A DNA stretch of 64,000 nucleotides. It comes from Escherichia coli (GTDB taxonomy: Bacteria > Pseudomonadota > Gammaproteobacteria > Enterobacterales > Enterobacteriaceae). The stretch lies in the NCBI RefSeq assembly GCF_030384885.1, contig NZ_CP128613.1, one strand, 5' to 3'. The position numbers and the translations under genes are program-made. This document shows, one piece after another, positions 6,045-63,865 of this stretch. The notes below the pieces were generated by a model. It was not told the DNA's origin. It made no database searches and worked only from the letters and a program-made list of their open reading frames with translations. Numbering within the stretch: the stretch's first letter is position 1; each line of letters starts with the position of its first letter.

Positions 6045-6115
6045 CGGCTAACTGTGCAGTCCGTTGGCCCGGTTATCGGTAGCGATACCGGGCATTTTTT
6101 TAAGGAACGATCGAT

Positions 6116-13201: not shown

Positions 13202-13479
13202 TCGCTAAATAATAGAGCAACCTTTAATAATCTTCTGATGAATAAAGATTGTCTCATATATTAATTTTATGAGATTTTTTTAGGATTATATCAAGGAGAA
13301 GAAAAGAACTTATTAAGCTAGAATAGCTGCGGGTGCTTGAGACTGTTTGTCTCAGGTATTCACCGAAAGGCAGACAGAGAAAAGCCCCACCTGACTATAA
13401 ATCAAAGTGAGGCTACCCTATGCCTGAACACCATAAGGTTAGCCTCTTACTCGTTAGAAATCAACACAGGAGGCTGGGA

Positions 13480-13632
13480 ATGCCGCAGAAATATAGATTA
13501 CTTTCTTTAATAGTGATTTGTTGCACGCTTTTATTTTTCACCTGGATGATAAGAGATTCACTGTGTGAATTGCATATTAAACAGGGGAGTTATGAGCTGG
13601 CGGCATTTTTAGCCTGCAATTTGAAAGAGTAA
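13480..13632 (+). CDS. hokA: Hok-family type I toxin (50 aa), locus intact
   Basis: MPQKYRLLSLIVICCTLLFFTWMIRDSLCELHIKQGSYELAAFLACNLKE; in-frame upstream extension present in ORF track (mok-like leader region). Confidence 0.85.
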   Translation: MPQKYRLLSLIVICCTLLFFTWMIRDSLCELHIKQGSYELAAFLACNLKE

Positions 13633-13762
13633 GAGTCTTCGGCGGGAAGTTATTCCCGCCTTTCTTACGGCGTTGCGCATTCTCATTGCACCCAAATTTA
13701 TTCTTCACAAAAATAATAATAGATTTTATTACGCGAACGATTATTTATTTCCTGAATAAACA

Positions 13763-13793
13763 AATAAAAAAATCCCCGCCATTTGGCAGGGAT
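13763..13793 (-). terminator. Rho-independent terminator downstream of cspA
   Basis: Hairpin ccctgcc-aaat-ggcgggg followed by U-run on minus-strand transcript. Confidence 0.6.
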
Positions 13794-13820
13794 CTTAGAT
13801 TCTGTGCTTTTAAGCAGAGA

Positions 13821-14033
13821 TTACAGGCTGGTTACGTTACCAGCTGCCGGGCCTTTAGCGCCGCTTTCGATGGTGAAGGACACTTTCTGACCTTCGTCCA
13901 GAGATTTGTAACCATCGTTCTGGATAGCAGAGAAGTGTACGAACACGTCTTTAGAGCCATCGTCAGGAGTGATGAAGCCGAAGCCTTTGTCAGCGTTGAA
14001 CCATTTTACGATACCAGTCATTTTACCGGACAT
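13821..14033 (-). CDS. cspA: Major cold shock protein CspA
   Basis: 70 aa [70 protein letters not shown]. Confidence 0.97.
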
Positions 14034-14192
14034 AGTGTATTACCTTTAATAATTAAGTGTGCCTTTCGGCGATATGGCGTGCTTTACAGATTTTGAAGCG
14101 TTAAAGGAATGTGCACTACGAGGGGTATCAACGATAACTCTTGAAGGGACTTGCCTTACTACACTGCTTTAATGGTCTGTACGTCAAACCGT
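14034..14192 (-). promoter_or_regulatory. cspA long 5' UTR (cold-responsive leader, by established knowledge)
   Basis: Region immediately upstream of cspA start on minus strand; extent taken from known ~159 nt leader, not resolved from sequence alone. Confidence 0.45.
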
Positions 14193-14313
14193 TGATGTGC
14201 ATTAAGCCACGCATTGGCGGGTGATGCAACAATTATTTTTCATATTTATGATTAATCGGTTGGAAAACGGTCCTGTCATCAGGACCGTAAACAGCAATAA
14301 AGTGGATAAAAGT

Positions 14314-25388: not shown

Positions 25389-25465
<77 letters not shown>

Positions 25466-25474
25466 AATTCGAAA

Positions 25475-25501
25475 AGCCTGCTCAGCGAGCAGGCTTTTTT
25501 G
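25475..25501 (+). terminator. Rho-independent terminator after proK
   Basis: Hairpin agcctgctc-agcg-agcaggct followed by T6. Confidence 0.6.
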
Positions 25502-25790
25502 CATTTGAAGCCCATGAGGATGAGAACCTCCGGGGGCGGGGAGGTTCGACTCGAGCGAAGCGAGAGAACGTTGCGCCAGCAACGGCCCGCAGGGCGAGCC
25601 ACGAAGTGGCGAGTAATCCTCTATCACCGACCAATTTAGAAAAACCAGCCTACGGGCTGGTTTTTTGCTTTCTGCGACCTGAAGAGGATAAGAACCTCCG
25701 GGGGCAGGGAGGTTCGACTCGAGCAAAGCGAGAGAACGTTGTGGCAGCAACGGCCCGCAGTGGCGAGTAATCCTCTGGCACCGACCAAAA
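25502..25790 (+). repeat. Two tandem ~155-170 bp repeats, each ending in a copy of the proK 3' terminal 19 nt and containing a degenerate T-arm-like segment
   Basis: aatcctctatcaccgacca at 25615..25633 is identical to the tRNA 3' end (25447..25465); aatcctctggcaccgacca at 25769..25787 has 2 mismatches; gggaggttcgactcgagc occurs in both units. Confidence 0.6.
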
Positions 25791-28057: not shown

Positions 28058-28238
<181 letters not shown>

Positions 28239-33914: not shown

Positions 33915-33984
33915 AGAGAGAAAACCCCCGCACGTTGCAGATATTCACCTGACAACATCACGGGGGCTAATCTTGAACCTAGAC
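33915..33984 (-). ncRNA. rdlD: Rdl-like antisense RNA (copy 1), approximate ends
   Basis: Minus-strand gtctaggttcaagattagcccccgtgatgttgtcaggtgaatatctgcaacgtgcgggggttttctctctcc with terminal hairpin cccccgc/gcggggg plus U-run, upstream of ldr ORF; boundaries estimated. Confidence 0.45.
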
Positions 33985-34032
33985 CACTCAAGAATAGCCG
34001 CGAAACGTTGTCATTACAACACAGGCGGCTAT

Positions 34033-34140
34033 ATGACGCTCGCAGAACTGGGCATGGCCTTCTGGCATGATTTAGCGGCTCCGGTCATTGCTGGCATTCT
34101 TGCCAGCATGATCGTGAACTGGCTGAATAAGCGGAAGTAA
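34033..34140 (+). CDS. ldrD: Ldr-family type I toxin peptide (35 aa), copy 1
   Basis: MTLAELGMAFWHDLAAPVIAGILASMIVNWLNKRK. Confidence 0.85.
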   Translation: MTLAELGMAFWHDLAAPVIAGILASMIVNWLNKRK

Positions 34141-34190
34141 CGTGTCAGACGGGCGTCAGGCTGCCGTAATGGCAATTTGCGCCCGGACCA

Positions 34191-34223
34191 GGCCGCAGGG
34201 ATAAAACTCTGCGGCCTTTTTCG
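34191..34223 (+). terminator. Rho-independent terminator after ldr copy 1
   Basis: ggccgcag-ggataaaact-ctgcggcc followed by T5. Confidence 0.5.
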
Positions 34224-34397
34224 TAAGAAAAATGCAACGGTTGCAAGCGGATAATATTCTGCGGAATGCGCAGCACAGAGTGAAGAAGTGATGGATTCCG
34301 GAACAGAAAAACAGTCGTAGAATCAGCGGCAAGCCGGAAGGGTTCCGGTGAGGCGCAATGTTGCGGGGGCTTAATCCCTGGTGGCATTGGTTGCTGG

Positions 34398-34467
34398 AGA
34401 GAGAAAACCCCCGCACGTTGCAGGTATGCACCTGACAACATCACGGGGGCTAATCTTGAACCCAAAC
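34398..34467 (-). ncRNA. Rdl-like antisense RNA (copy 2), approximate ends
   Basis: Duplicate of copy 1 offset by 483 bp with a few substitutions. Confidence 0.4.
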
Positions 34468-54157: not shown

Positions 54158-54360
54158 TAAATCACCCGGCAGCGTTTCTTCTGCGCTGCCGGGATTAACG
54201 GTAATAAATTAGTTACCGTGATATAACCGCAGATATTTTTCCTGGCACGGCGGTAGCGCGCAGATAACCATTCATTATTAAAATAAACTTACCGTAGAGT
54301 GGGTTTAATTATTTATTAGCTGAATAAATTATACCGGTGCCTCCTGGAAGGAGTGAGTTT

Positions 54361-54786
54361 ATGCTTGTGTTAAAATCACAATCGATTGGATTCAGGATTT
54401 CCACAGCTTATTTATCTTTAACATATACAGAGTCTGATGGCGTCAAGATTAAAGTAGATGCTCTGGAGTTAATATCAACAGAGAGAGATTATGTTCAAAT
54501 TGAACTGGTCTTCACTACTGTTGCTGAAGTTAAGTGTGCTACCGTCAATTTTTATGAAGCCAACTATAACAATATTGTTATTAAGAAGGTTGATGGTGAA
54601 AATCTGGACTCCGGTATATATCAAGTAATGAATTCTGTACCGCTTGAAGAAAAAGAGAAATTATATGATCCTAAAAAACGGTTGAAGTTAAAACATTATA
54701 TTATAGCAGGTTATGATAGTTATGTTGAGATTTTAGCTACTGGTTTTAGCTGTATACGATGCCAGGCAATAGATGGTGTTAAATAA
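54361..54786 (+). CDS. Hypothetical protein (141 aa), first gene of AT-rich accessory cassette; no signal peptide or TM segment
   Basis: ATG with AGGAG RBS 7 nt upstream; about 33 percent GC; stop overlaps next start (TAATG). Confidence 0.6.
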   Translation: MLVLKSQSIGFRISTAYLSLTYTESDGVKIKVDALELISTERDYVQIELVFTTVAEVKCATVNFYEANYNNIVIKKVDGENLDSGIYQVMNSVPLEEKEKLYDPKKRLKLKHYIIAGYDSYVEILATGFSCIRCQAIDGVK

Positions 54787-55040
54787 TGGCCTATCATATA
54801 GAAATATTGAAAATTGAAGAAACTGATAAAGTAGTAAAATATGAATTTGGACCTACATCTTCTGACTATTGTAGATCTGATTACGGCGAATTCGTGATAG
54901 ATAAAAGAACGGGTGAGATGACATTAGTCAGAATGGTTAAAAACGATTCAGCTAATAAATTTTATTTGCGAGCGAGTTTTAAGATTCTGACCTGTTGGCG
55001 AAAGGGCTATTTGCCAAAAAATGAGGAATGGGCTTCTTAA
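54786..55040 (+). CDS. Hypothetical small protein (84 aa), translationally coupled to upstream ORF
   Basis: ATG overlaps upstream stop by 1 nt; AT-rich; no recognisable motif. Confidence 0.55.
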   Translation: MAYHIEILKIEETDKVVKYEFGPTSSDYCRSDYGEFVIDKRTGEMTLVRMVKNDSANKFYLRASFKILTCWRKGYLPKNEEWAS

Positions 55041-55139
55041 TAAGTAACTTTGCAGAATAAGTGAATTTTCCCATTTTTTTGGGGGCAGTCGTTGATTCTT
55101 ACACAGTTTATGTTATGGGTGCCAAATTTAGGATAGGCT

Positions 55140-55619
55140 ATGGATTTTCACTTGGATATTTTGCTCCCTACACAATTCGCTCCAGAGGAACTAGATCTAC
55201 AAGAGGTTATGATTCACTGGGGTGGGGAAACCTTTCATCGCGACCCTCCGGTATACGCCTGGTGTAATCATCATCTTTTGCAGAGATGCAATCTACCGAT
55301 TACTTATGGCCCACCTTTAGATGAGCACATAGACTTTAATGAATATCATGTTTACAACTTCAATGGTTCTTTAGTCGATGACCTGGAAATGGCTGTGAAT
55401 AAAGGAAAGGATATTTCAACCAATCCTATAATTAAATTTATTAACAACCTGGTTAGCAAAAATTACGGGGGGTGGGTAATCTTGTCATTAGATGATGAAA
55501 AAATAGAAGTGATTAAAAATATAAGCTTCCAGTATTCTTTTCTATCATTATTAGTTGATGGACTAAAATGGGAAAGACCGCATGGGGTGGCAATATTATA
55601 TAATTCACACTTAATTTAA
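55140..55619 (+). CDS. Hypothetical protein (159 aa), cytoplasmic-type
   Basis: ATG with AGGATAGG RBS; AT-rich; no TM. Confidence 0.6.
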   Translation: MDFHLDILLPTQFAPEELDLQEVMIHWGGETFHRDPPVYAWCNHHLLQRCNLPITYGPPLDEHIDFNEYHVYNFNGSLVDDLEMAVNKGKDISTNPIIKFINNLVSKNYGGWVILSLDDEKIEVIKNISFQYSFLSLLVDGLKWERPHGVAILYNSHLI

Positions 55620-55640
55620 TTAATTAATGAATGGAAACAT

Positions 55641-55943
55641 ATGTATCGTGTAAAGGTTGTTTGGCTTACAGAAAATGAAGGTGGCAGAAGGAGCGCACCT
55701 CCTATCGGTAGATATTATCCCGTCTCCAGGTTTCCAGAGGAGAAAACTGACTGGCAAAATAATGCATGGAGTGTTGTTTTTGAATTGGAAAAACCTAATG
55801 TAACCGATGGACGTATCGTTTCAATGGGGTGCGTTCAGTTCCTTTTCGATACCGCCCCTGAACAATGGATGACTAAGTACGAGGCATTTGAGATCTACGA
55901 AGGACCAAGAAAAGTCGCAGATGTATTATTGATAGGGAATTAA
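55641..55943 (+). CDS. Hypothetical small protein (100 aa) with apparent similarity to the C-terminal beta-barrel (domain 3) of EF-Tu-type translational GTPases
   Basis: By-eye alignment to E. coli EF-Tu domain 3: VKVVWLTENEGGRR vs EVYILSKDEGGRH, RYYPV vs GYRPQ, C-terminal AFEIYEGPRKVADVLL vs RFAIREGGRTVGAGVV. Confidence 0.55.
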   Translation: MYRVKVVWLTENEGGRRSAPPIGRYYPVSRFPEEKTDWQNNAWSVVFELEKPNVTDGRIVSMGCVQFLFDTAPEQWMTKYEAFEIYEGPRKVADVLLIGN

Positions 55944-56004
55944 TTTTATTTATGTCAGGCTATTTAATTATATTTGCGACCTCAACGCATTTTCAGGAGT
56001 ATAA

Positions 56005-56538
56005 ATGCGTAACAAAAAACGCATACTATTCTTGCTAACAGTCATTTTTTGCTTAACAGGTCTTTATTCCTGCAACAAAAATTTTCTCTTACTCTGGGAT
56101 GCCAATAATATGTATGTCAGCACAAGAAATAATATCGATAAAGACAAGGTAAAAATAGAATTCGGTATCAGCGTCAACACGATCAACCGAGAAACGGATG
56201 CCGAATTATTTGCTGACAGAGATAAGTATGCAGTGCTCTTCGATGGTAGCCTGAAAAATAAGATGATAAGCGAATACGGAGAAAATGATTTTTTAATTAC
56301 CTACGATAACCGCTGCTATTTATCATTTCGTCAATTTAAAACAAATCGTCGTCATCAACATGACTATTATTTTGACTTCTTTAACAAGGATGGGAATGTC
56401 TTCGTCACGGTCGAAATTAAAGGTGAGAACCCGCTTAAATTTACGCGTAGTTTTAATGATATGCGTCAGCAGTTTTCACCATTCCGTAAGGGTAGCCCTT
56501 CTCACTCCTGCAAGGTTATTTCTTCAGATCCTTCTTAA
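56005..56538 (+). CDS. Hypothetical lipoprotein (177 aa)
   Basis: AGGAG RBS; N-terminus MRNKKRILFLLTVIFCLTGLYSC resembles lipoprotein signal peptide; 3' end overlaps convergent gene by 23 nt. Confidence 0.6.
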   Translation: MRNKKRILFLLTVIFCLTGLYSCNKNFLLLWDANNMYVSTRNNIDKDKVKIEFGISVNTINRETDAELFADRDKYAVLFDGSLKNKMISEYGENDFLITYDNRCYLSFRQFKTNRRHQHDYYFDFFNKDGNVFVTVEIKGENPLKFTRSFNDMRQQFSPFRKGSPSHSCKVISSDPS

Positions 56539-58510
56539 ACACTGGTTCTGGACAATCACGACCAAAATGCGCCGCCCAGTCAAAAGATTTACCGTTTTTC
56601 ACGTAGCGTTGATAAATTAATGCACCGGTTTCTGGATCAAGATATCTGATCCAACTTGCAGCATGGCATAACACGGCAGCCCAAGCCTGGGTTTTAGGGT
56701 GAAGTAAATCGGCTGATTGTCCGGCCCATTCCGCAGCCTGCCAGCGGTAATGCAAAAAATGCTCATCAACAGTGGGGATTGCGTGGCGGAAACGTTGTTT
56801 TTCTTTACGACTTATCCACTGATCGTTATTGCTGTATTCAAAGGGTTCTGAATACTGCCCGCTGGTAATGGCATAATCGGGATACATTTCATAAGCCGCC
56901 AATTCGATACCACTGAAACGCAAAAGCCGCGCAGCTTCGTATTGCGCCTGGGCGCGTTGCTTATCAGGGATGTTTTTATTTTTTGCTATCGCCATTAAAT
57001 CAGCCAGTTTTTGTGCGGCCTGGCGATAATTGGGAATATCAAACCAATTGATGGCCTGCTGGTACTGGCCATGACGAATTAATCGTCTACCCAATAACGC
57101 CCGTAATTTAACATCCGTTGGAATGATATCTGGCGAAAGATAATAACCGTCATTGTTATTATTTAAATCTACAGGTTTTAAAGGGTGCTGAGGTACCGGT
57201 ACGTTTTTTTCAACAAACGCCTGTAACTCCGGTAAGGTCAAAACGTTTTCTGCAACCCAGGCTAAATCGGCCCAATAGAGATCTTTGGCCTGGTAAAACA
57301 ATGCGGTGGCCTGAAGATAATCATCGCGTTTTAATGCCAAAATCGCCTGCTCACTGGCAATACGGCAAGATGGGATAATAACTTTATCTCCATGATAATA
57401 AGGACTTTCCGGGTCCATACTTCCCCACACTTCATCGGTCGGGAACATCGGGGCTGCGCGAGCATAGTGACGCGTTGCCAGTGGAATATCTCCGGCTCGT
57501 AATGCCATTTTTGCTTTTAACCATTCGCTTAATCCACTTTCTGGCGCATCCTGCAACAGCGTTTGTGCTAACGAATAATTTCCTGCCCGATACGCCAGTG
57601 CTGCCAGGCGATCGCTATAACTAAATCCTTTAACTCTGTGTTGACTTAGCAACTTAATTAAACGGTCGCGATGCGTTGGACAGGTATAATCTACAAGGTC
57701 CTTAGTACAGGCTTCGCTAACATACCCCCAGTCATGACGAATAAAGAGCTCTGCGATTACCAGTTGCTGAACCAGAGAATCATTAATAACCGACTCCAGC
57801 AGTGGTAAATTTTTCTCCCTGGTTATATACAGCGAAATCATCCGTAGCGACGCTTTCCCGGAGGGCGAACCCTGGGCCGCTTGCCGGGCATACATTTTTA
57901 CTGCCGCAGCGACATCACCTTTTTTCAGATAATAATGCCCAATCTGACCGAGACTGGCGAGAGAGAGCAATTCAGGATCGGCTGCGCCATTACGCACTTC
58001 TTCAATGATTTGCTGATAACGCTGTATGGCCTGCTCAGCAAGTTCCTGATTAAAGCCACCTTTATTGATTATAAGATCGAGATCGTCGTCAGAGGCATCA
58101 AATCCCCCCCTTGCCAGACTATATAGCGCAGCCAGCCGCCATTCTCCTTGCTCTGTTTTCGGCAAGGCTAATAATTGCTGAAAGTATGGGCTATCGTATT
58201 TTCCCTGATGGAAATCCTTAGCTCCTGAATAATAAAGTTCCAGTGCCCGATTTTGCACAGGAGGTTCAGCATCTGTATCTGTCTGCGTTGCCTCTTCAGG
58301 CGTATTTTCTTGCCATACTGGTAAACCAGGATCGCGTTTAACCAACTGTTGTACTTCAAAGACAAAACTGCCATTTGGCATTTCCAGCAGTGCGCTATTG
58401 CGGTCAGTTAACAGATGATTGGGAATAAATGGTCCACAGGCATTAACGTTGGCGCTAATTAGCGAGAGAAATACAACAACGGAAAGCCGCGATATTTTAG
58501 GGGATAACAT
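56516..58510 (-). CDS. Hypothetical large lipoprotein (664 aa) with helical repeat (TPR/Sel1-like) character
   Basis: ORF 56516..58735; start placed at ATG 58510 (MLSPKISRLSVVVFLSLISANVNAC, lipobox) with AGGAGAG RBS; near-native GC; start overlaps upstream gene stop by 14 nt. Confidence 0.75.
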   Translation of the reverse strand: MLSPKISRLSVVVFLSLISANVNACGPFIPNHLLTDRNSALLEMPNGSFVFEVQQLVKRDPGLPVWQENTPEEATQTDTDAEPPVQNRALELYYSGAKDFHQGKYDSPYFQQLLALPKTEQGEWRLAALYSLARGGFDASDDDLDLIINKGGFNQELAEQAIQRYQQIIEEVRNGAADPELLSLASLGQIGHYYLKKGDVAAAVKMYARQAAQGSPSGKASLRMISLYITREKNLPLLESVINDSLVQQLVIAELFIRHDWGYVSEACTKDLVDYTCPTHRDRLIKLLSQHRVKGFSYSDRLAALAYRAGNYSLAQTLLQDAPESGLSEWLKAKMALRAGDIPLATRHYARAAPMFPTDEVWGSMDPESPYYHGDKVIIPSCRIASEQAILALKRDDYLQATALFYQAKDLYWADLAWVAENVLTLPELQAFVEKNVPVPQHPLKPVDLNNNNDGYYLSPDIIPTDVKLRALLGRRLIRHGQYQQAINWFDIPNYRQAAQKLADLMAIAKNKNIPDKQRAQAQYEAARLLRFSGIELAAYEMYPDYAITSGQYSEPFEYSNNDQWISRKEKQRFRHAIPTVDEHFLHYRWQAAEWAGQSADLLHPKTQAWAAVLCHAASWIRYLDPETGALIYQRYVKNGKSFDWAAHFGRDCPEPVFKKDLKK

Positions 58511-59705
58511 TGAACTCTCCTTGTAAATTTGGGGTGCATCGCGCCCATCCCAGCGCACTGCTTTCACCAGCACGCAACTGCCTGGTACTGATGCGAATAA
58601 AACGTAACGAGGATGCGTTGGTTTGTGCCTGATAATGGCCTGCGCCATCAGCATATGTGCATTGAGCAGCAGGCAGCTCGATCTGTTGTGGCAATGGCGC
58701 GTCAATATCACCATTGTTTTTAATGGCCAAATCAATAAGTTGCTTGTCAGCCTGTGGCGAAATTATCAAAGACCAGCGCGGCGTCAAAGGTTTATGGTGA
58801 ATAACGGCATCTAAAGTAGACAGGGACCAGGCGCGGCGATCATTTGCCAGCGGGAGTCGGAACCAGATAAATCCCTGTAACCCTGAGGGCGGTTTTTGTT
58901 CCAGCTGTTGGGTAAAATCAGCCAACGTTTGTGGCGCCACACTCAGCTCCCGCAACTCTTGTGCAATATACAGTGGGGCTTCGCTTTCAATACGGTTATC
59001 GCGCGTCAGCGCAGAACCGTAAGCCGGCAGAGCGATGTAAAAAGGATGGGGAGAAATACGTGCATATTGCGTGCTCCAGCGCTTAGCCAGTTTACTGTCG
59101 AATAATCCCTGTTGCGGCGATAACACCGTATGCACCTGCAAAACAGAAATATCGGCGTCAGCCAGCAGCGCAGGCAGATGTGGTGAATTCAGCCAGTCAG
59201 GTAATGCAGTAATACTGAGTTTTAATTCTGCAGGAAGATTCTGGCGCAATGTCCTTAGCAACTGTTGGTATTCCACCAGTTTTGCCGTTGGCGCATCGAA
59301 ATCAATTTCAATGCCAGCCAGCTTAATACCCGCCTCTTTCCACTCATTCATTGTTCGTACAATGTTCTGCACAACATTTTGTTGATTAATATGAGAGAGC
59401 TTACCGTCCAGTCGCGCAACCAGCCAGACGGGGCGATCATCTTGTTTTATAAATGTTTTATTAACGGCGGTGTAGCGTATACCTTCCTGAGGATGAACTT
59501 GTAGCTCCAGAATGCGTAGCGTTGAGAACAGATTACGGCTCTGTTTTAGTGCGTGCTCATGTTGCGCGGTCCACAAACGCTGCCAGATATAGACTTGTTG
59601 ATCGAGGGGGCGTGTTTTTTGCGGCATAAGCCGGGTCAGCAGCCCATATCCAGAGCCGATAAAAACGATGAGTGAAATGGCAAAAATCCATTTGCGAGAG
59701 GGCAT
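58497..59705 (-). CDS. Hypothetical membrane-anchored periplasmic protein (402 aa); alternating beta-strand/helix pattern and GIEIDFD motif suggest a TIM-barrel glycosidase-like fold (inference)
   Basis: N-terminal TM helix IFAISLIVFIGSGYGLL; motifs VWLVARLDG, AGIKLAGIEIDFDAP, ISVLQVHTV; translationally coupled to downstream lipoprotein gene. Confidence 0.75.
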   Translation of the reverse strand: MPSRKWIFAISLIVFIGSGYGLLTRLMPQKTRPLDQQVYIWQRLWTAQHEHALKQSRNLFSTLRILELQVHPQEGIRYTAVNKTFIKQDDRPVWLVARLDGKLSHINQQNVVQNIVRTMNEWKEAGIKLAGIEIDFDAPTAKLVEYQQLLRTLRQNLPAELKLSITALPDWLNSPHLPALLADADISVLQVHTVLSPQQGLFDSKLAKRWSTQYARISPHPFYIALPAYGSALTRDNRIESEAPLYIAQELRELSVAPQTLADFTQQLEQKPPSGLQGFIWFRLPLANDRRAWSLSTLDAVIHHKPLTPRWSLIISPQADKQLIDLAIKNNGDIDAPLPQQIELPAAQCTYADGAGHYQAQTNASSLRFIRISTRQLRAGESSALGWARCTPNLQGEFNVIP

Positions 59706-59806: not shown

Positions 59807-60736
59807 TTACTGAGGCATGGCTTCGCGAGGAATAATCGCGCCGCGATACTGAATAACGGTACTTGCGGTCAGGTGCCCGCGTTTCGCCGCATTTTCCGCA
59901 CTGGCGCCCGTCAAACGTACCGCCAGATAACCGGCACTGAAAGAGTCGCCAGCTGCAGTGGTATCGATCACTTTTTCTTTTGGCAGTTTCACCGCCGGAA
60001 CATCCACTAACCCCTCGCCAGCAATGGACACCAGGCAAGAATCCGCCCCGCGTTTCACCACCACTTCTTTCACGCCCGCGTTATGGGTGCGCGCAATGAC
60101 GTCTTCCACCGGTTGTTGACCCCACAGCGCGTCTTCGTCGTCCAGCGTCAGGAAGGCGATATCCGTGCATTCCAGCATTTGCTGGTACATCTGCTGTGTC
60201 TCTTCTTTGCTGGCCCACAAGCGCGGACGGTAGTTATTGTCGAAAATCACTTTTCCACCGTTAGTGCGGCATTCGCGCAGCAGGGAAAGCAGCTTTTCGC
60301 GGCTGGTCGGGCTTAAGATTGCCAGGCTAATCCCGCTCAGGTAGAGATAATCAAAATTCGCCAGCTCTGCACAAATCGCTGCGGATTGCTCACTCTCCAG
60401 CCAAAATTTGGCGGCGGCTTCGTTACGCCAGTAGTAGAACGTACGTTCGCCAGTGCTGTCGGTTTCAATGTAGTAAAGACCCGGCAGACGGTTTTCCATC
60501 CGCTGGGTCAGGGAAGTATCAACGTTCTCGCCGTGCCAGGCGTCCAGCATCTGCTGACTAAAACTGTCCGTTCCCAGCGCCGTCACGTAATGAACGGTTA
60601 ATGCCGCAGGATCGACCTGACGGGCGATATAGACGGAAGTGTTCAGGGTATCGCCGCCGAAACCGCGCTTAACGTCCGCGCCTTTCTCGGAAAGCTCAAT
60701 CATGCATTCGCCAATCACGGCAATCTTTTTGGACAT
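59807..60736 (-). CDS. kdgK: 2-dehydro-3-deoxygluconokinase
   Basis: 309 aa; MSKKIAVIGECMIELSEKGADVKRGFGGDTLNTSVYIARQV; PfkB family. Confidence 0.95.
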   Translation of the reverse strand: MSKKIAVIGECMIELSEKGADVKRGFGGDTLNTSVYIARQVDPAALTVHYVTALGTDSFSQQMLDAWHGENVDTSLTQRMENRLPGLYYIETDSTGERTFYYWRNEAAAKFWLESEQSAAICAELANFDYLYLSGISLAILSPTSREKLLSLLRECRTNGGKVIFDNNYRPRLWASKEETQQMYQQMLECTDIAFLTLDDEDALWGQQPVEDVIARTHNAGVKEVVVKRGADSCLVSIAGEGLVDVPAVKLPKEKVIDTTAAGDSFSAGYLAVRLTGASAENAAKRGHLTASTVIQYRGAIIPREAMPQ

Positions 60737-60800
60737 AGTCGTGAACCTGATCTGTAAAAATTAGCGTTAGTTTGCGCTGTGGTGGTTTGCTGGTCAACCA

Positions 60801-60822
60801 TATTAAAACAGTGTTCCATTAT
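60801..60822. promoter_or_regulatory. Candidate KdgR operator upstream of kdgK
   Basis: Imperfect palindrome ttaaaacagtgttccatt resembling the KdgR box (AAAACA n TGTTTC-like half sites). Confidence 0.35.
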
Positions 60823-60891
60823 TTTTTTGAGCCAGAACGTATTCCTGAAAGATTCCGTAGTGGAGTGGGGAAATTTAACCCGGTCAGGCGG

Positions 60892-60918
60892 TAAAGTTCT
60901 GCTCTTGCGCGCCGATAA
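60892..60918 (+). promoter_or_regulatory. Sigma-28 (FliA) class 3 flagellar promoter for pdeH
   Basis: TAAAGTTC - 11 nt - GCCGATAA, matching FliA consensus TAAAGTTT-N11-GCCGATAA, about 50 nt upstream of pdeH ATG. Confidence 0.65.
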
Positions 60919-60966
60919 TCTTTGTCAAGTCCGGGCAGCATCACTTTTAAACACAGGACATCTTTG

Positions 60967-61734
60967 ATGATAAGGCAGGTTATCCAGCGAATAAGCAACC
61001 CTGAAGCAAGCATCGAGAGCTTGCAGGAACGGCGTTTTTGGTTGCAGTGTGAGCGTGCTTACACCTGGCAGCCGATCTATCAAACCTGCGGACGGTTAAT
61101 GGCCGTGGAGCTATTAACGGTGGTCACGCATCCCTCGAACCCTTTACAACGTCTGCCGCCGGATCGCTATTTTACTGAAATCACCGTCAGCCATCGGATG
61201 GAGGTTGTGAAAGAGCAGATTGATTTGCTGGCGCAAAATGCCGACTTCTTTGTCGAGCACGGCCTGCTGGCATCGGTCAATATTGATGGTCCTACGCTCA
61301 TCGCCCTGCGTCAGCAACCAAAAATCCTGCGCCAGATTGAGCATCTTCCCTGGCTGCGTTTCGAACTGGTAGAACACATCCGCCTGCCAAAAGACTCAAC
61401 CTTTGCCTCGATGTGTGAATTTGGTCCGCTGTGGCTGGATGATTTCGGCACTGGGATGGCAAATTTCTCTGCGCTAAGTGAAGTACGTTACGACTACATC
61501 AAAATCGCCCGTGAGCTGTTTGTGATGCTGCGTCAGTCGCCGGAAGGACGCACGCTCTTTTCTCAGCTTTTACATCTAATGAATCGCTATTGTCGCGGGG
61601 TGATTGTCGAAGGTGTGGAAACGCAGGAAGAGTGGCGCGATGTACAAAATTCGCCTGCATTTGCCGCACAAGGCTGGTTTCTTTCACGCCCGGCACCGAT
61701 AGAAACGCTGAATTCGGCAGTTCTGGCGCTATAA
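60967..61734 (+). CDS. pdeH: c-di-GMP phosphodiesterase PdeH (EAL domain)
   Basis: ORF 60922..61734; start at MIRQVIQRISNPEAS gives 255 aa. Confidence 0.92.
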   Translation: MIRQVIQRISNPEASIESLQERRFWLQCERAYTWQPIYQTCGRLMAVELLTVVTHPSNPLQRLPPDRYFTEITVSHRMEVVKEQIDLLAQNADFFVEHGLLASVNIDGPTLIALRQQPKILRQIEHLPWLRFELVEHIRLPKDSTFASMCEFGPLWLDDFGTGMANFSALSEVRYDYIKIARELFVMLRQSPEGRTLFSQLLHLMNRYCRGVIVEGVETQEEWRDVQNSPAFAAQGWFLSRPAPIETLNSAVLAL

Positions 61735-61789: not shown

Positions 61790-63865
61790 ATGAGGAAGCG
61801 AATGATGAGCAAGGCAGGCAAAATAACCGCTGCGATTTCAGGGACTTTCTTGTTGTTGATTGTCGTGGCGATCATTTTGATTGCAACATTTGACTGGAAT
61901 CGACTCAAACCGACCATCAACCAGAAAGTCTCTGCGGAGTTGAATCGTCCATTCGCTATCCGTGGCGATCTGGGCGTGGTGTGGGAGCGGCAAAAACAAG
62001 AAACCGGCTGGCGCAGCTGGGTGCCGTGGCCTCATGTGCATGCAGAAGACATCATTCTTGGCAATCCGCCGGATATTCCCGAAGTAACAATGGTGCATTT
62101 GCCGCGGGTAGAAGCGACGCTGGCCCCGCTGGCGTTGCTGACCAAAACGGTCTGGCTGCCGTGGATAAAACTGGAGAAGCCCGACGCGCGTCTGATTCGT
62201 CTCTCTGAAAAGAACAATAACTGGACCTTTAATCTCGCCAATGATGACAACAAAGACATGAATGCAAAGCCGTCTGCGTGGTCGTTTCGACTGGATAATA
62301 TTCTGTTCGATCAAGGGCGGATCGCTATTGATGACAAAGTAAGCAAAGCGGATCTGGAAATTTTTGTCGATCCGTTAGGCAAGCCGCTGCCGTTCAGTGA
62401 AGTTACCGGATCGAAAGGTAAAGCGGACAAAGAAAAGGTGGGCGATTACGTTTTTGGTCTGAAGGCGCAGGGACGTTATAACGGTGAACCGCTCACGGGC
62501 AAAGGTAAAATCGGCGGTATGCTGGCACTACGCGGCGAAGGTACACCGTTTCCGGTACAGGCTGATTTCCGCTCCGGGAATACTCGCGTCGCTTTTGATG
62601 GCGTCGTGAATGACCCAATGAAGATGGGCGGTGTCGATTTACGGCTTAAATTTTCTGGCGATTCGCTGGGTGATCTCTATGAACTGACGGGCGTTCTGCT
62701 GCCCGATACCCCGCCGTTTGAAACGGATGGTCGGCTGGTAGCGAAAATCGACACTGAAAAATCGTCGGTCTTTGATTATCGCGGTTTTAATGGGCGCATT
62801 GGCGATAGCGATATCCACGGTTCTCTGGTCTACACCACCGGCAAGCCACGACCAAAACTGGAAGGTGATGTCGAATCGCGGCAATTGCGGCTGGCAGATT
62901 TAGGGCCATTGATTGGCGTTGATTCTGGAAAAGGTGCAGAAAAGTCGAAACGGTCTGAGCAGAAGAAAGGCGAAAAAAGCGTTCAGCCTGCGGGCAAAGT
63001 GCTGCCTTATGACCGCTTCGAAACCGATAAATGGGACGTCATGGATGCCGATGTCCGCTTCAAAGGTCGGCGCATTGAACATGGTAGTAGCTTGCCGATT
63101 AGCGATCTCTCTACCCATATCATTCTCAAAAATGCTGACCTGCGCCTGCAACCGCTGAAATTTGGCATGGCAGGCGGCAGCATTGCGGCGAATATTCATC
63201 TGGAAGGCGATAAAAAGCCGATGCAAGGGCGGGCTGATATTCAGGCGCGTCGGCTGAAACTCAAAGAACTGATGCCCGATGTAGAACTGATGCAGAAGAC
63301 GCTGGGGGAAATGAACGGTGACGCGGAACTACGCGGTAGCGGTAACTCGGTGGCGGCGCTTTTAGGCAACAGTAACGGCAACCTGAAACTGTTGATGAAT
63401 GACGGGCTGGTGAGCCGCAACCTGATGGAGATTGTCGGCCTGAATGTCGGCAACTACATTGTCGGTGCGATATTTGGTGATGATGAGGTGCGGGTGAACT
63501 GCGCGGCAGCGAATCTGGATATTGCCAACGGTGTAGCGCGTCCGCAGATTTTTGCTTTTGATACTGAGAATGCGTTGATCAATGTTACCGGCACGGCAAG
63601 TTTTGCTTCGGAGCAACTGGATTTGACTATCGATCCAGAAAGTAAAGGGATTCGGATTATCACACTGCGTTCGCCGCTGTATGTGCGTGGGACATTTAAA
63701 AATCCGCAGGCTGGGGTGAAAGCCGGACCGTTGATTGCTCGCGGAGCCGTCGCGGCGGCACTGGCAACGCTGGTAACACCGGCGGCGGCGTTACTGGCGC
63801 TGATCTCTCCTTCCGAAGGGGAGGCTAATCAGTGTCGGACGATTTTGTCGCAGATGAAGAAGTGA
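61790..63865 (+). CDS. yhjG: AsmA-family protein YhjG
   Basis: 691 aa from first ATG (alternative starts at 61802/61805 give 687/686 aa); N-terminal TM helix. Confidence 0.88.
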   Translation: MRKRMMSKAGKITAAISGTFLLLIVVAIILIATFDWNRLKPTINQKVSAELNRPFAIRGDLGVVWERQKQETGWRSWVPWPHVHAEDIILGNPPDIPEVTMVHLPRVEATLAPLALLTKTVWLPWIKLEKPDARLIRLSEKNNNWTFNLANDDNKDMNAKPSAWSFRLDNILFDQGRIAIDDKVSKADLEIFVDPLGKPLPFSEVTGSKGKADKEKVGDYVFGLKAQGRYNGEPLTGKGKIGGMLALRGEGTPFPVQADFRSGNTRVAFDGVVNDPMKMGGVDLRLKFSGDSLGDLYELTGVLLPDTPPFETDGRLVAKIDTEKSSVFDYRGFNGRIGDSDIHGSLVYTTGKPRPKLEGDVESRQLRLADLGPLIGVDSGKGAEKSKRSEQKKGEKSVQPAGKVLPYDRFETDKWDVMDADVRFKGRRIEHGSSLPISDLSTHIILKNADLRLQPLKFGMAGGSIAANIHLEGDKKPMQGRADIQARRLKLKELMPDVELMQKTLGEMNGDAELRGSGNSVAALLGNSNGNLKLLMNDGLVSRNLMEIVGLNVGNYIVGAIFGDDEVRVNCAAANLDIANGVARPQIFAFDTENALINVTGTASFASEQLDLTIDPESKGIRIITLRSPLYVRGTFKNPQAGVKAGPLIARGAVAAALATLVTPAAALLALISPSEGEANQCRTILSQMKK

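Follow-up and report, generated by a model that had tools for sequence, protein, structure and literature searches.

The kdgK/pdeH intergenic region of an Escherichia coli strain carries the FliA-recognised class 3 flagellar promoter of pdeH

A near-consensus FliA promoter upstream of pdeH

Positions 60892-60918 of the window (the whole 64-kb stretch of E. coli DNA analysed here) are almost certainly a class 3 flagellar promoter of pdeH that is recognised by FliA (sigma-28). A FliA-dependent promoter of this gene is already known, at textbook level, for E. coli K-12, and we describe no new biology. The preliminary description of this DNA had regarded the site as explained by known biology and as serving mainly as a sanity check, and that view is borne out: the site is the known K-12 FliA promoter of pdeH.

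The gene served by the promoter, pdeH (yhjH), encodes a c-di-GMP phosphodiesterase and occupies 60967-61734 on the + strand, as judged by its match to NF008617 (459.5 bits, with a cut-off of 190) and by the RefSeq annotation of pdeH both in the closest strain and in K-12; it is followed by yhjG, which begins at 61790. Its divergent neighbour, annotated as kdgK, lies on the - strand at 59807-60736 (NF052444, 526 bits). The two start codons, at 60736 (-) for kdgK and at 60967 (the ATG of pdeH), delimit a shared intergenic region of 230 bp (60737-60966).

Read directly from the + strand, the promoter consists of the -35 octamer TAAAGTTC (60892-60899), an 11-nt spacer, tgctcttgcgc (60900-60910), and the -10 octamer GCCGATAA (60911-60918), the end of which precedes the pdeH ATG by 48 nt. 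When compared with the sigma-28 consensus given by Hollands et al. (2010, PMC2859248), TAAAGTTT-N11-GCCGATAA, the window agrees at 15 of the 16 specified positions (7/8 against TAAAGTTT in the -35 octamer and 8/8 in the -10 octamer), the sole mismatch being a C for T at the last position of the -35 element, and the N11 spacing is kept. The motif, its spacing and its strand had been given exactly in the preliminary description; its further statements, that the promoter is near-consensus and that kdgK and pdeH diverge from a 230-bp spacer, agree with the comparison to the published consensus and with the gene identities and coordinates given above.

Such a match is rare. When both strands of the 64-kb window were scanned with at most one mismatch allowed, the pattern was found once, and none of 100 dinucleotide-preserving shuffles contained it; raising the tolerance to three mismatches left the pdeH promoter as the sole match in the window. 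The same position stood out when we scored the window with a FliA weight matrix, trained on 24 other FliA ChIP-seq sites with yhjH excluded to avoid circularity: 60892-60919 reached 22.35 bits, which is the window maximum, as compared to 15.84 bits for the next position and 19.47 bits for the best of 100 shuffled windows. The runner-up, AAAAATGCCCGGTATCGCTACCGATAAC at 6072-6099 on the - strand, is located antisense between xylA and xylB; it is probably a chance match, since its score falls within the range of the shuffles (mean per-window maximum of 14.7 bits, highest 19.5).

Upstream of the -35 element the window has an A/T tract, AAATTTAA (60871-60878, + strand, at about -54 to -47), and a similarly placed A/T-rich tract is present in most of the aligned species; it may act as a UP-like element. 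A CRP site at -49.5, of the kind present at the aer promoter, was looked for by eye, and nothing resembling TGTGA-N6-TCACA was seen around 60864-60885.

Both octamers and their spacing are conserved across Enterobacteriaceae

We collected pdeH loci from representatives of 80 Enterobacteriaceae species, 78 of which came with upstream DNA; these were aligned with the motif as anchor, and dereplication left 78 distinct sequences. The genera sampled include Escherichia, Citrobacter, Salmonella, Enterobacter, Lelliottia, Leclercia, Kosakonia, Atlantibacter, Franconibacter, Siccibacter and Pseudocitrobacter. All 78 loci with upstream DNA contain TAAAGTT(C/A)-N11-GCCGATAA. The -35 octamer is invariant save for a C/A alternation at position 8 (1.95 bits per column over the 78 sequences), and the -10 octamer is identical in every one of them (2.00 bits per column). 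The spacer, while 11 nt long in 78/78, is variable in sequence except for its first T, carrying 0.59 bits per column, and the 60-nt flanks on the two sides carry 0.46 and 0.53 bits per column. The distance from the end of the -10 element to the start codon is 47-57 nt in 77 of the 78 species, and between the KdgR-type box described below and the Shine-Dalgarno sequence the two FliA octamers are the only strongly conserved blocks. The contrast between 1.95 and 2.00 bits in the octamers on the one hand and 0.59 bits in the spacer and about 0.5 bits in the flanks on the other is the pattern expected of purifying selection that acts on both recognition elements and on the spacing between them, but not on the spacer sequence.

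Several smaller features of the alignment are not part of the two octamers as such. The base directly 3' of the -35 octamer, T60900, is invariant in the 78 species. At its position 8 the -35 octamer has C, replaced by A in some genera, and the consensus T is found in 0/78. A GA(C/G)GAGTCC block is conserved across genera at about +1 to +10 of the predicted transcript (60924-60933). Finally, GAAC directly adjoins the -35 octamer on its upstream side in 47 of the 78 species, no Escherichia among them; in those 47 species the result is a GAAC-aTAAA-GTTC inverted repeat that overlaps the -35 element, and the window has GGCGG instead.

Taken as a pattern in the alignment, T60900, the non-T position 8 and the GA(C/G)GAGTCC block could mark the site of a second factor, or else an mRNA element, located at the 5' end, through which the output of PdeH is adjusted; put more generally, the conserved features of the promoter and leader could be a site for a protein or an sRNA. 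We give only a slender chance to the broader proposition that the pdeH promoter region holds regulatory information beyond the two FliA octamers, with coupling to the KdgR/PlaR site discussed in the next section among the options.

A KdgR-type box on the kdgK side of the intergenic region

The preliminary description had also placed a candidate KdgR operator for kdgK in the shared spacer, and such a box is indeed present. As predicted from the operator pattern and from conservation, a KdgR-type box, ATTAAAACAGTGTTCCATT, occupies 60802-60820 (no strand assigned), 66-84 nt upstream of the kdgK ATG. The search pattern, AATRAAAYRNYRTTTYATT, is a 19-bp imperfect palindrome which we take to be the KdgR operator consensus. 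The box is the window's sole site within two mismatches of this pattern; it carries two, and 0.13 such sites are expected by chance. As a check of the pattern we scanned 48 kb of K-12 DNA, in which sites with at most three mismatches were found solely upstream of kduI (two sites), kdgT and kdgK. The core of the box, TTAAAAC-N3-GTTCCA, is located 64-70 nt upstream of kdgK, a position shared by most of the 76 species with a divergent kdgK (the arrangement is retained in 76 of 78), and the three central bases vary.

The E. coli KdgR operators of kduI and kdgT are built on the same 19-bp palindrome, with 0 mismatches for kduI and 1 for kdgT as compared to 2 for kdgK. The kdgK box differs from them in having a weaker right half-site, GTTCCA in place of GTTTCA, although GTTCCA itself is conserved across genera. 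All three genes, kduI, kdgT and kdgK, are reported to be repressed by KdgR (PMC6958661); known KdgR targets include kduD, kdgT and kdgK, and kdgK mRNA is increased in a K-12 kdgR mutant (Shimada et al. 2019, PMC6958661). The PlaR-box string as printed, ATnTGAAACnnnGTTCAnTT, was considered as an alternative description of the site and rejected, as it has no match within three mismatches in the kdgK/pdeH spacer; the KdgR-type pattern fits instead.

The 60802-60820 box appears to serve the divergent kdgK promoter, separately from the FliA promoter. A gap of 72 bp lies between its end and the pdeH -35 element downstream, so that the two are physically distinct. One could nevertheless imagine that KdgR or PlaR, bound at 60802-60820, modulates the FliA promoter, or that transcription by FliA modulates kdgK, which would connect hexuronate catabolism with c-di-GMP and motility. 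Both PlaR and KdgR are reported to target the kdgK/pdeH spacer (PMC6958661), the divergent arrangement is kept in nearly all of the species compared, and the box and the -35 element are mostly 68-74 bp apart. However, about 105-123 bp separate the box from the predicted pdeH +1 downstream, too much for steric repression; its distance from the -35 element, which varies by 6 nt over 72, is held no more closely than the length of the leader (10 nt over about 50), and it shrinks to 41 bp in Pseudocitrobacter. Since the spacing is no more constrained than other lengths in the intergenic region, we see no sign of coupling between the KdgR-type box and the FliA promoter: conserved synteny accounts for the arrangement, and a literature report of an effect of KdgR or PlaR on pdeH was not found. 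We therefore regard such coupling as very improbable.

FliA occupancy and FliA-dependent expression of the K-12 orthologue

The promoter in the window is the counterpart of the K-12 promoter yhjHp / pdeHp (RegulonDB ECK120009896), with which it shares both octamers, the 11-nt length of the spacer, the 48 nt between the -10 element and the ATG, and a divergent kdgK. The differences are two substitutions in the spacer (T for C at 60903 and G for A at 60907), one in the leader (A for G at 60927) and a few changes further upstream; in addition, the window's strain has an extra 5.5-kb island beyond kdgK. The alignment with K-12 MG1655 has no indels from the -35 element to the ATG, and coordinates were converted by equating window position w with NC_000913.3 position 3679187 + (60967 - w). 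Because the alignment is indel-free and the octamers are identical, the K-12 data can be transferred directly to the window.

Binding of FliA at this site in K-12 has been documented by ChIP-seq, in which a peak with the motif TAAAGTTCTGCCCTTACGCGCCGATAAT was assigned to yhjH with a fold-above-threshold (FAT) value of 67 (Fitzgerald et al. 2014, PMC4183435), one of the higher values for the 52 FliA sites reported there. Converted to our coordinates, the centre of the peak falls at 60933, i.e. 29 nt downstream of the centre of the motif (60904); the median offset of a ChIP peak is 25 nt for a holoenzyme-bound promoter (PMC4183435). ChIP-qPCR at yhjH gave 10.1 +/- 3.5 for FliA-FLAG as compared to 0.31 for the untagged control (p = 0.004; PMC4183435). 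A correction to Fitzgerald et al. 2014 alters a footnote only and leaves the yhjH row intact.

Normalised RNA-seq expression of yhjH drops from 511 in motile MG1655 to 2 when fliA is deleted, and by qRT-PCR, with the K-12 wild type set at 1.0, the transcript is at 0.027 in the fliA deletion and at 2.73 when the deletion strain carries pBAD-fliA (PMC4183435). In an earlier microarray study yhjH was down 9.6-fold in a fliA deletion (Zhao et al. 2007, PMC1935009). More recently pdeH has been termed a class 3 flagellar gene, with pdeH::gfp serving as a reporter of sigma-FliA activity (Klauck et al. 2018, PMC6119863). The assignment of pdeH to class 3 in the preliminary description is thus in line with ChIP-seq and ChIP-qPCR, with the fliA dependence seen by RNA-seq and qRT-PCR, and with the label used in PMC6119863. 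FliA occupancy and FliA-dependent expression are established for the K-12 orthologue, the octamers and geometry of which are identical to those in the window, and by analogy the pdeH promoter is presumably active in the window's strain too.

The kdgK/yhjH spacer is not named in the in vitro genomic SELEX list of the RpoF holoenzyme (Shimada et al. 2017); since that screen recovered only 14 of the 144 RegulonDB RpoF promoters at its cut-off, its low sensitivity makes the absence uninformative. A full-text literature search with the promoter sequence returned Fitzgerald 2014 and its correction, and no others.

The K-12 data also bear on whether pdeH belongs to both class 2 and class 3, with FlhDC acting directly in the spacer in addition to FliA, as it does at flgM, flgK, fliD and fliL. 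Several late flagellar operons are dual-regulated in this way (PMC4183435). However, yhjH is absent from the FlhDC sites named in the text of that study and in the part of its Table 1 covered here, which fits class 3 better than class 2; the targets tested there by FlhD/FlhC ChIP-qPCR did not include yhjH. Moreover, the residual expression of yhjH in the fliA deletion, in which FlhDC is present, is about 0.4-3%, whereas dual-regulated genes keep 20-90%. Direct control by FlhDC is therefore, in our estimate, very improbable, and FliA recognition of a class 3 promoter is the reading that we retain.

Predicted transcription start and 5' leader of pdeH

The start of the pdeH transcript is predicted at G60924 or T60925 on the + strand, from the RegulonDB +1 and from sigma-28 geometry. 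For yhjHp RegulonDB lists +1 at 3677252 on the minus strand of NC_000913.2, within ...gccgataatctttgTcgag... (Table S3, PMC4183435). This nucleotide corresponds to T60925 of the window, and the entry bears the codes HIPP and AIPP (human and automated inference) and not TIM (transcription initiation mapping). We calibrated the geometry on seven TIM-supported sigma-28 promoters, in which transcription begins at the 7th base beyond the -10 octamer in six cases (fliC, tsr, tar, fliAp2, fliLp2 and ves) and at the 6th in one (aer). In addition, transcription start sites determined by dRNA-seq at well-characterised flagellar promoters lie 18-22 bp downstream of the centres of the FliA motifs (Fitzgerald et al. 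2017), an offset that, applied to the pdeH motif centre, gives 60922-60926. A +1 at G60924 or T60925 would be consistent with the promoter, though it is not independent of the motif. A mapped pdeH start had no entry under the gene name or the coordinate prefix in the supplements, possibly incomplete, of Kim 2012, Ettwiller 2016, Cho 2014 and Ramachandran 2012; the only +1 located was that of RegulonDB, and the comparison with a mapped start suggested in the preliminary description was made indirectly, through this +1 and the sigma-28 geometry.

As these sources yielded no base-resolution start, a second start is formally possible, and pdeH might be transcribed mainly from another promoter in the spacer, dependent on sigma-70 or sigma-S, with the FliA motif playing a minor part. 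We consider this extremely improbable: in K-12 without fliA, yhjH RNA is at 0.4-2.7% of the wild type and is restored by plasmid-borne fliA; a search of 60650-61050 for a sigma-70-type promoter or a terminator found no match anywhere in that interval; and, as described above, nothing from the KdgR-type box to the Shine-Dalgarno sequence is strongly conserved apart from the two FliA octamers. Just as improbable is a chance match with no function in the window's strain, such as a relic in a non-motile lineage, for while the window contains none of fliA, flhDC and flgM, no shuffle out of 100 produced a match with at most one mismatch, the octamers are intact, the same as in K-12 and maintained in 78 species, and the region is present at 95% identity or more in 5,416 of 5,426 complete E. 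coli genomes.

Transcription from the FliA promoter at the predicted start would yield a 5' leader of 42-43 nt (60924-60966, + strand) with a Shine-Dalgarno sequence, AGGA, at 60955-60958. An in-frame TTG at 60922 is upstream of the predicted start and thus outside the predicted transcript, in agreement with the annotated ATG at 60967. At 60927, which would be +3 or +4 of the transcript, the window has A, and K-12 and E. coli 2013C-4282 have G; it is the single difference from 2013C-4282 across the 301 bp compared.

The leader also offered a candidate for an RNA structure, which we rejected. A conserved GAGTCC, located at about +6 to +11, shows complementarity to GGAC in the Shine-Dalgarno region, and pairing of GAGUCC with GGAC would form a hairpin that sequesters the ribosome-binding site. 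The fold of the window's leader, at -7.9 kcal/mol, is no stabler than that of shuffled sequences (z = +0.69); RNAalifold predicted no consensus pairs in 40 orthologous leaders; and the proposed GAGUCC/GGAC helix has one-sided changes only, with no compensatory changes and no excess over shuffles. An apparent A-U / G-U / G-C series at leader position 4 is seen in Escherichia only.

In one genome, Citrobacter amalonaticus S646 (L010:1766-2000), the pdeH leader contains an insertion of about 187 nt, which lies downstream of the FliA -10 element and ahead of the Shine-Dalgarno sequence. The -10 element is intact, and 235 nt separate it from the ATG, as compared to 48 nt in the window. The insertion matches no Rfam family at gathering score.

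The surrounding locus

The window is collinear with the closest strain, E. coli 2013C-4282, through xyl, glyQS, dpp, bcs, pdeK, dctA, yhjJ, a 5.5-kb island, kdgK, pdeH and yhjG. The kdgK/pdeH spacer region is nearly universal in the species (5,416/5,426 complete E. coli genomes at >=95% identity). The island, which lies between yhjJ and kdgK at about 54360-59705, is 100% identical to that of 2013C-4282; the segment 54000-59800 is covered to at least 80% in 2 of the 5,426 complete E. coli genomes, and in K-12 the gap between yhjJ and kdgK is just about 95 bp. On its + strand the island has five small hypothetical ORFs, and on its - strand two large ones, a hypothetical ORF (664-739 aa, according to which start codon is taken) and a DUF3142 ORF of 402 aa; neither of these two matches NCBIfam. 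In other strains, the annotations of island variants include a TPR protein and an 'immunity protein TriTu family protein', and it is these annotations that hint at a variable island of the toxin/immunity type between yhjJ and kdgK.

Elsewhere in the window, Rfam matches at gathering score (13331-14193, 25389-25787, 28081-28123 and 33919-34467) agree with the RefSeq annotation of the closest strain. They comprise a sok antitoxin beside hokA, a full-length cspA thermoregulator and a tRNA-Pro followed by two RtT repeats, as well as ES036 (CssrF) and two rdlD antitoxins paired with ldr toxin genes.

Proposed regulation and relation to known systems

In the mechanism that we propose, region 4 of FliA would read the -35 octamer TAAAGTTC and regions 2/3 the -10 octamer GCCGATAA, the two being held at a fixed distance by the 11-bp spacer. 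Initiation would take place 6-7 nt downstream of the -10 element, at G60924 or T60925, and the resulting leader, about 43 nt long, would have a normal ribosome-binding site (AGGA) ahead of the ATG at 60967. Expression of FliA itself is driven by a class 2 promoter that depends on FlhDC, and FlgM keeps the protein inactive until completion of the hook-basal body. As a consequence of this timing, pdeH would be turned on at the same time as the late flagellar, motor and chemotaxis genes. PdeH is the main c-di-GMP-degrading enzyme of E. coli, and the logic of FlgM and YcgR belongs to the established knowledge of the flagellar cascade. By keeping c-di-GMP low, PdeH would prevent the YcgR brake from slowing the motor, and the production of curli and cellulose would stay off. 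Placing pdeH under FliA would in this way couple low c-di-GMP, and with it free motor rotation and the absence of curli and cellulose, to the completion of the flagellum.

For the window as such, the promoter confirms the strand, the coordinates and the gene calls at the kdgK/pdeH locus. It also documents an intact regulatory region in a strain whose neighbouring DNA departs from that of K-12, and the conservation of the promoter across the family.

The architecture is that of the canonical class 3 promoters of E. coli (tar, tsr, flgM, motA and fliC), all of which share the two octamers with N11 between them. In its agreement with the consensus the pdeH promoter, at 15/16, ranks just below that of tar (16/16) and level with those of tsr and flgM. 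Unlike the structural, motor or chemoreceptor genes served by canonical class 3 promoters, pdeH encodes a signalling enzyme. A parallel is provided by bifA of Pseudomonas putida: there too a flagellar sigma factor is reported (PMC5300878) to be what drives a c-di-GMP phosphodiesterase that favours swimming, although the protein is non-orthologous, the bacterium belongs to a different family, and control by FliA is described as only partial.
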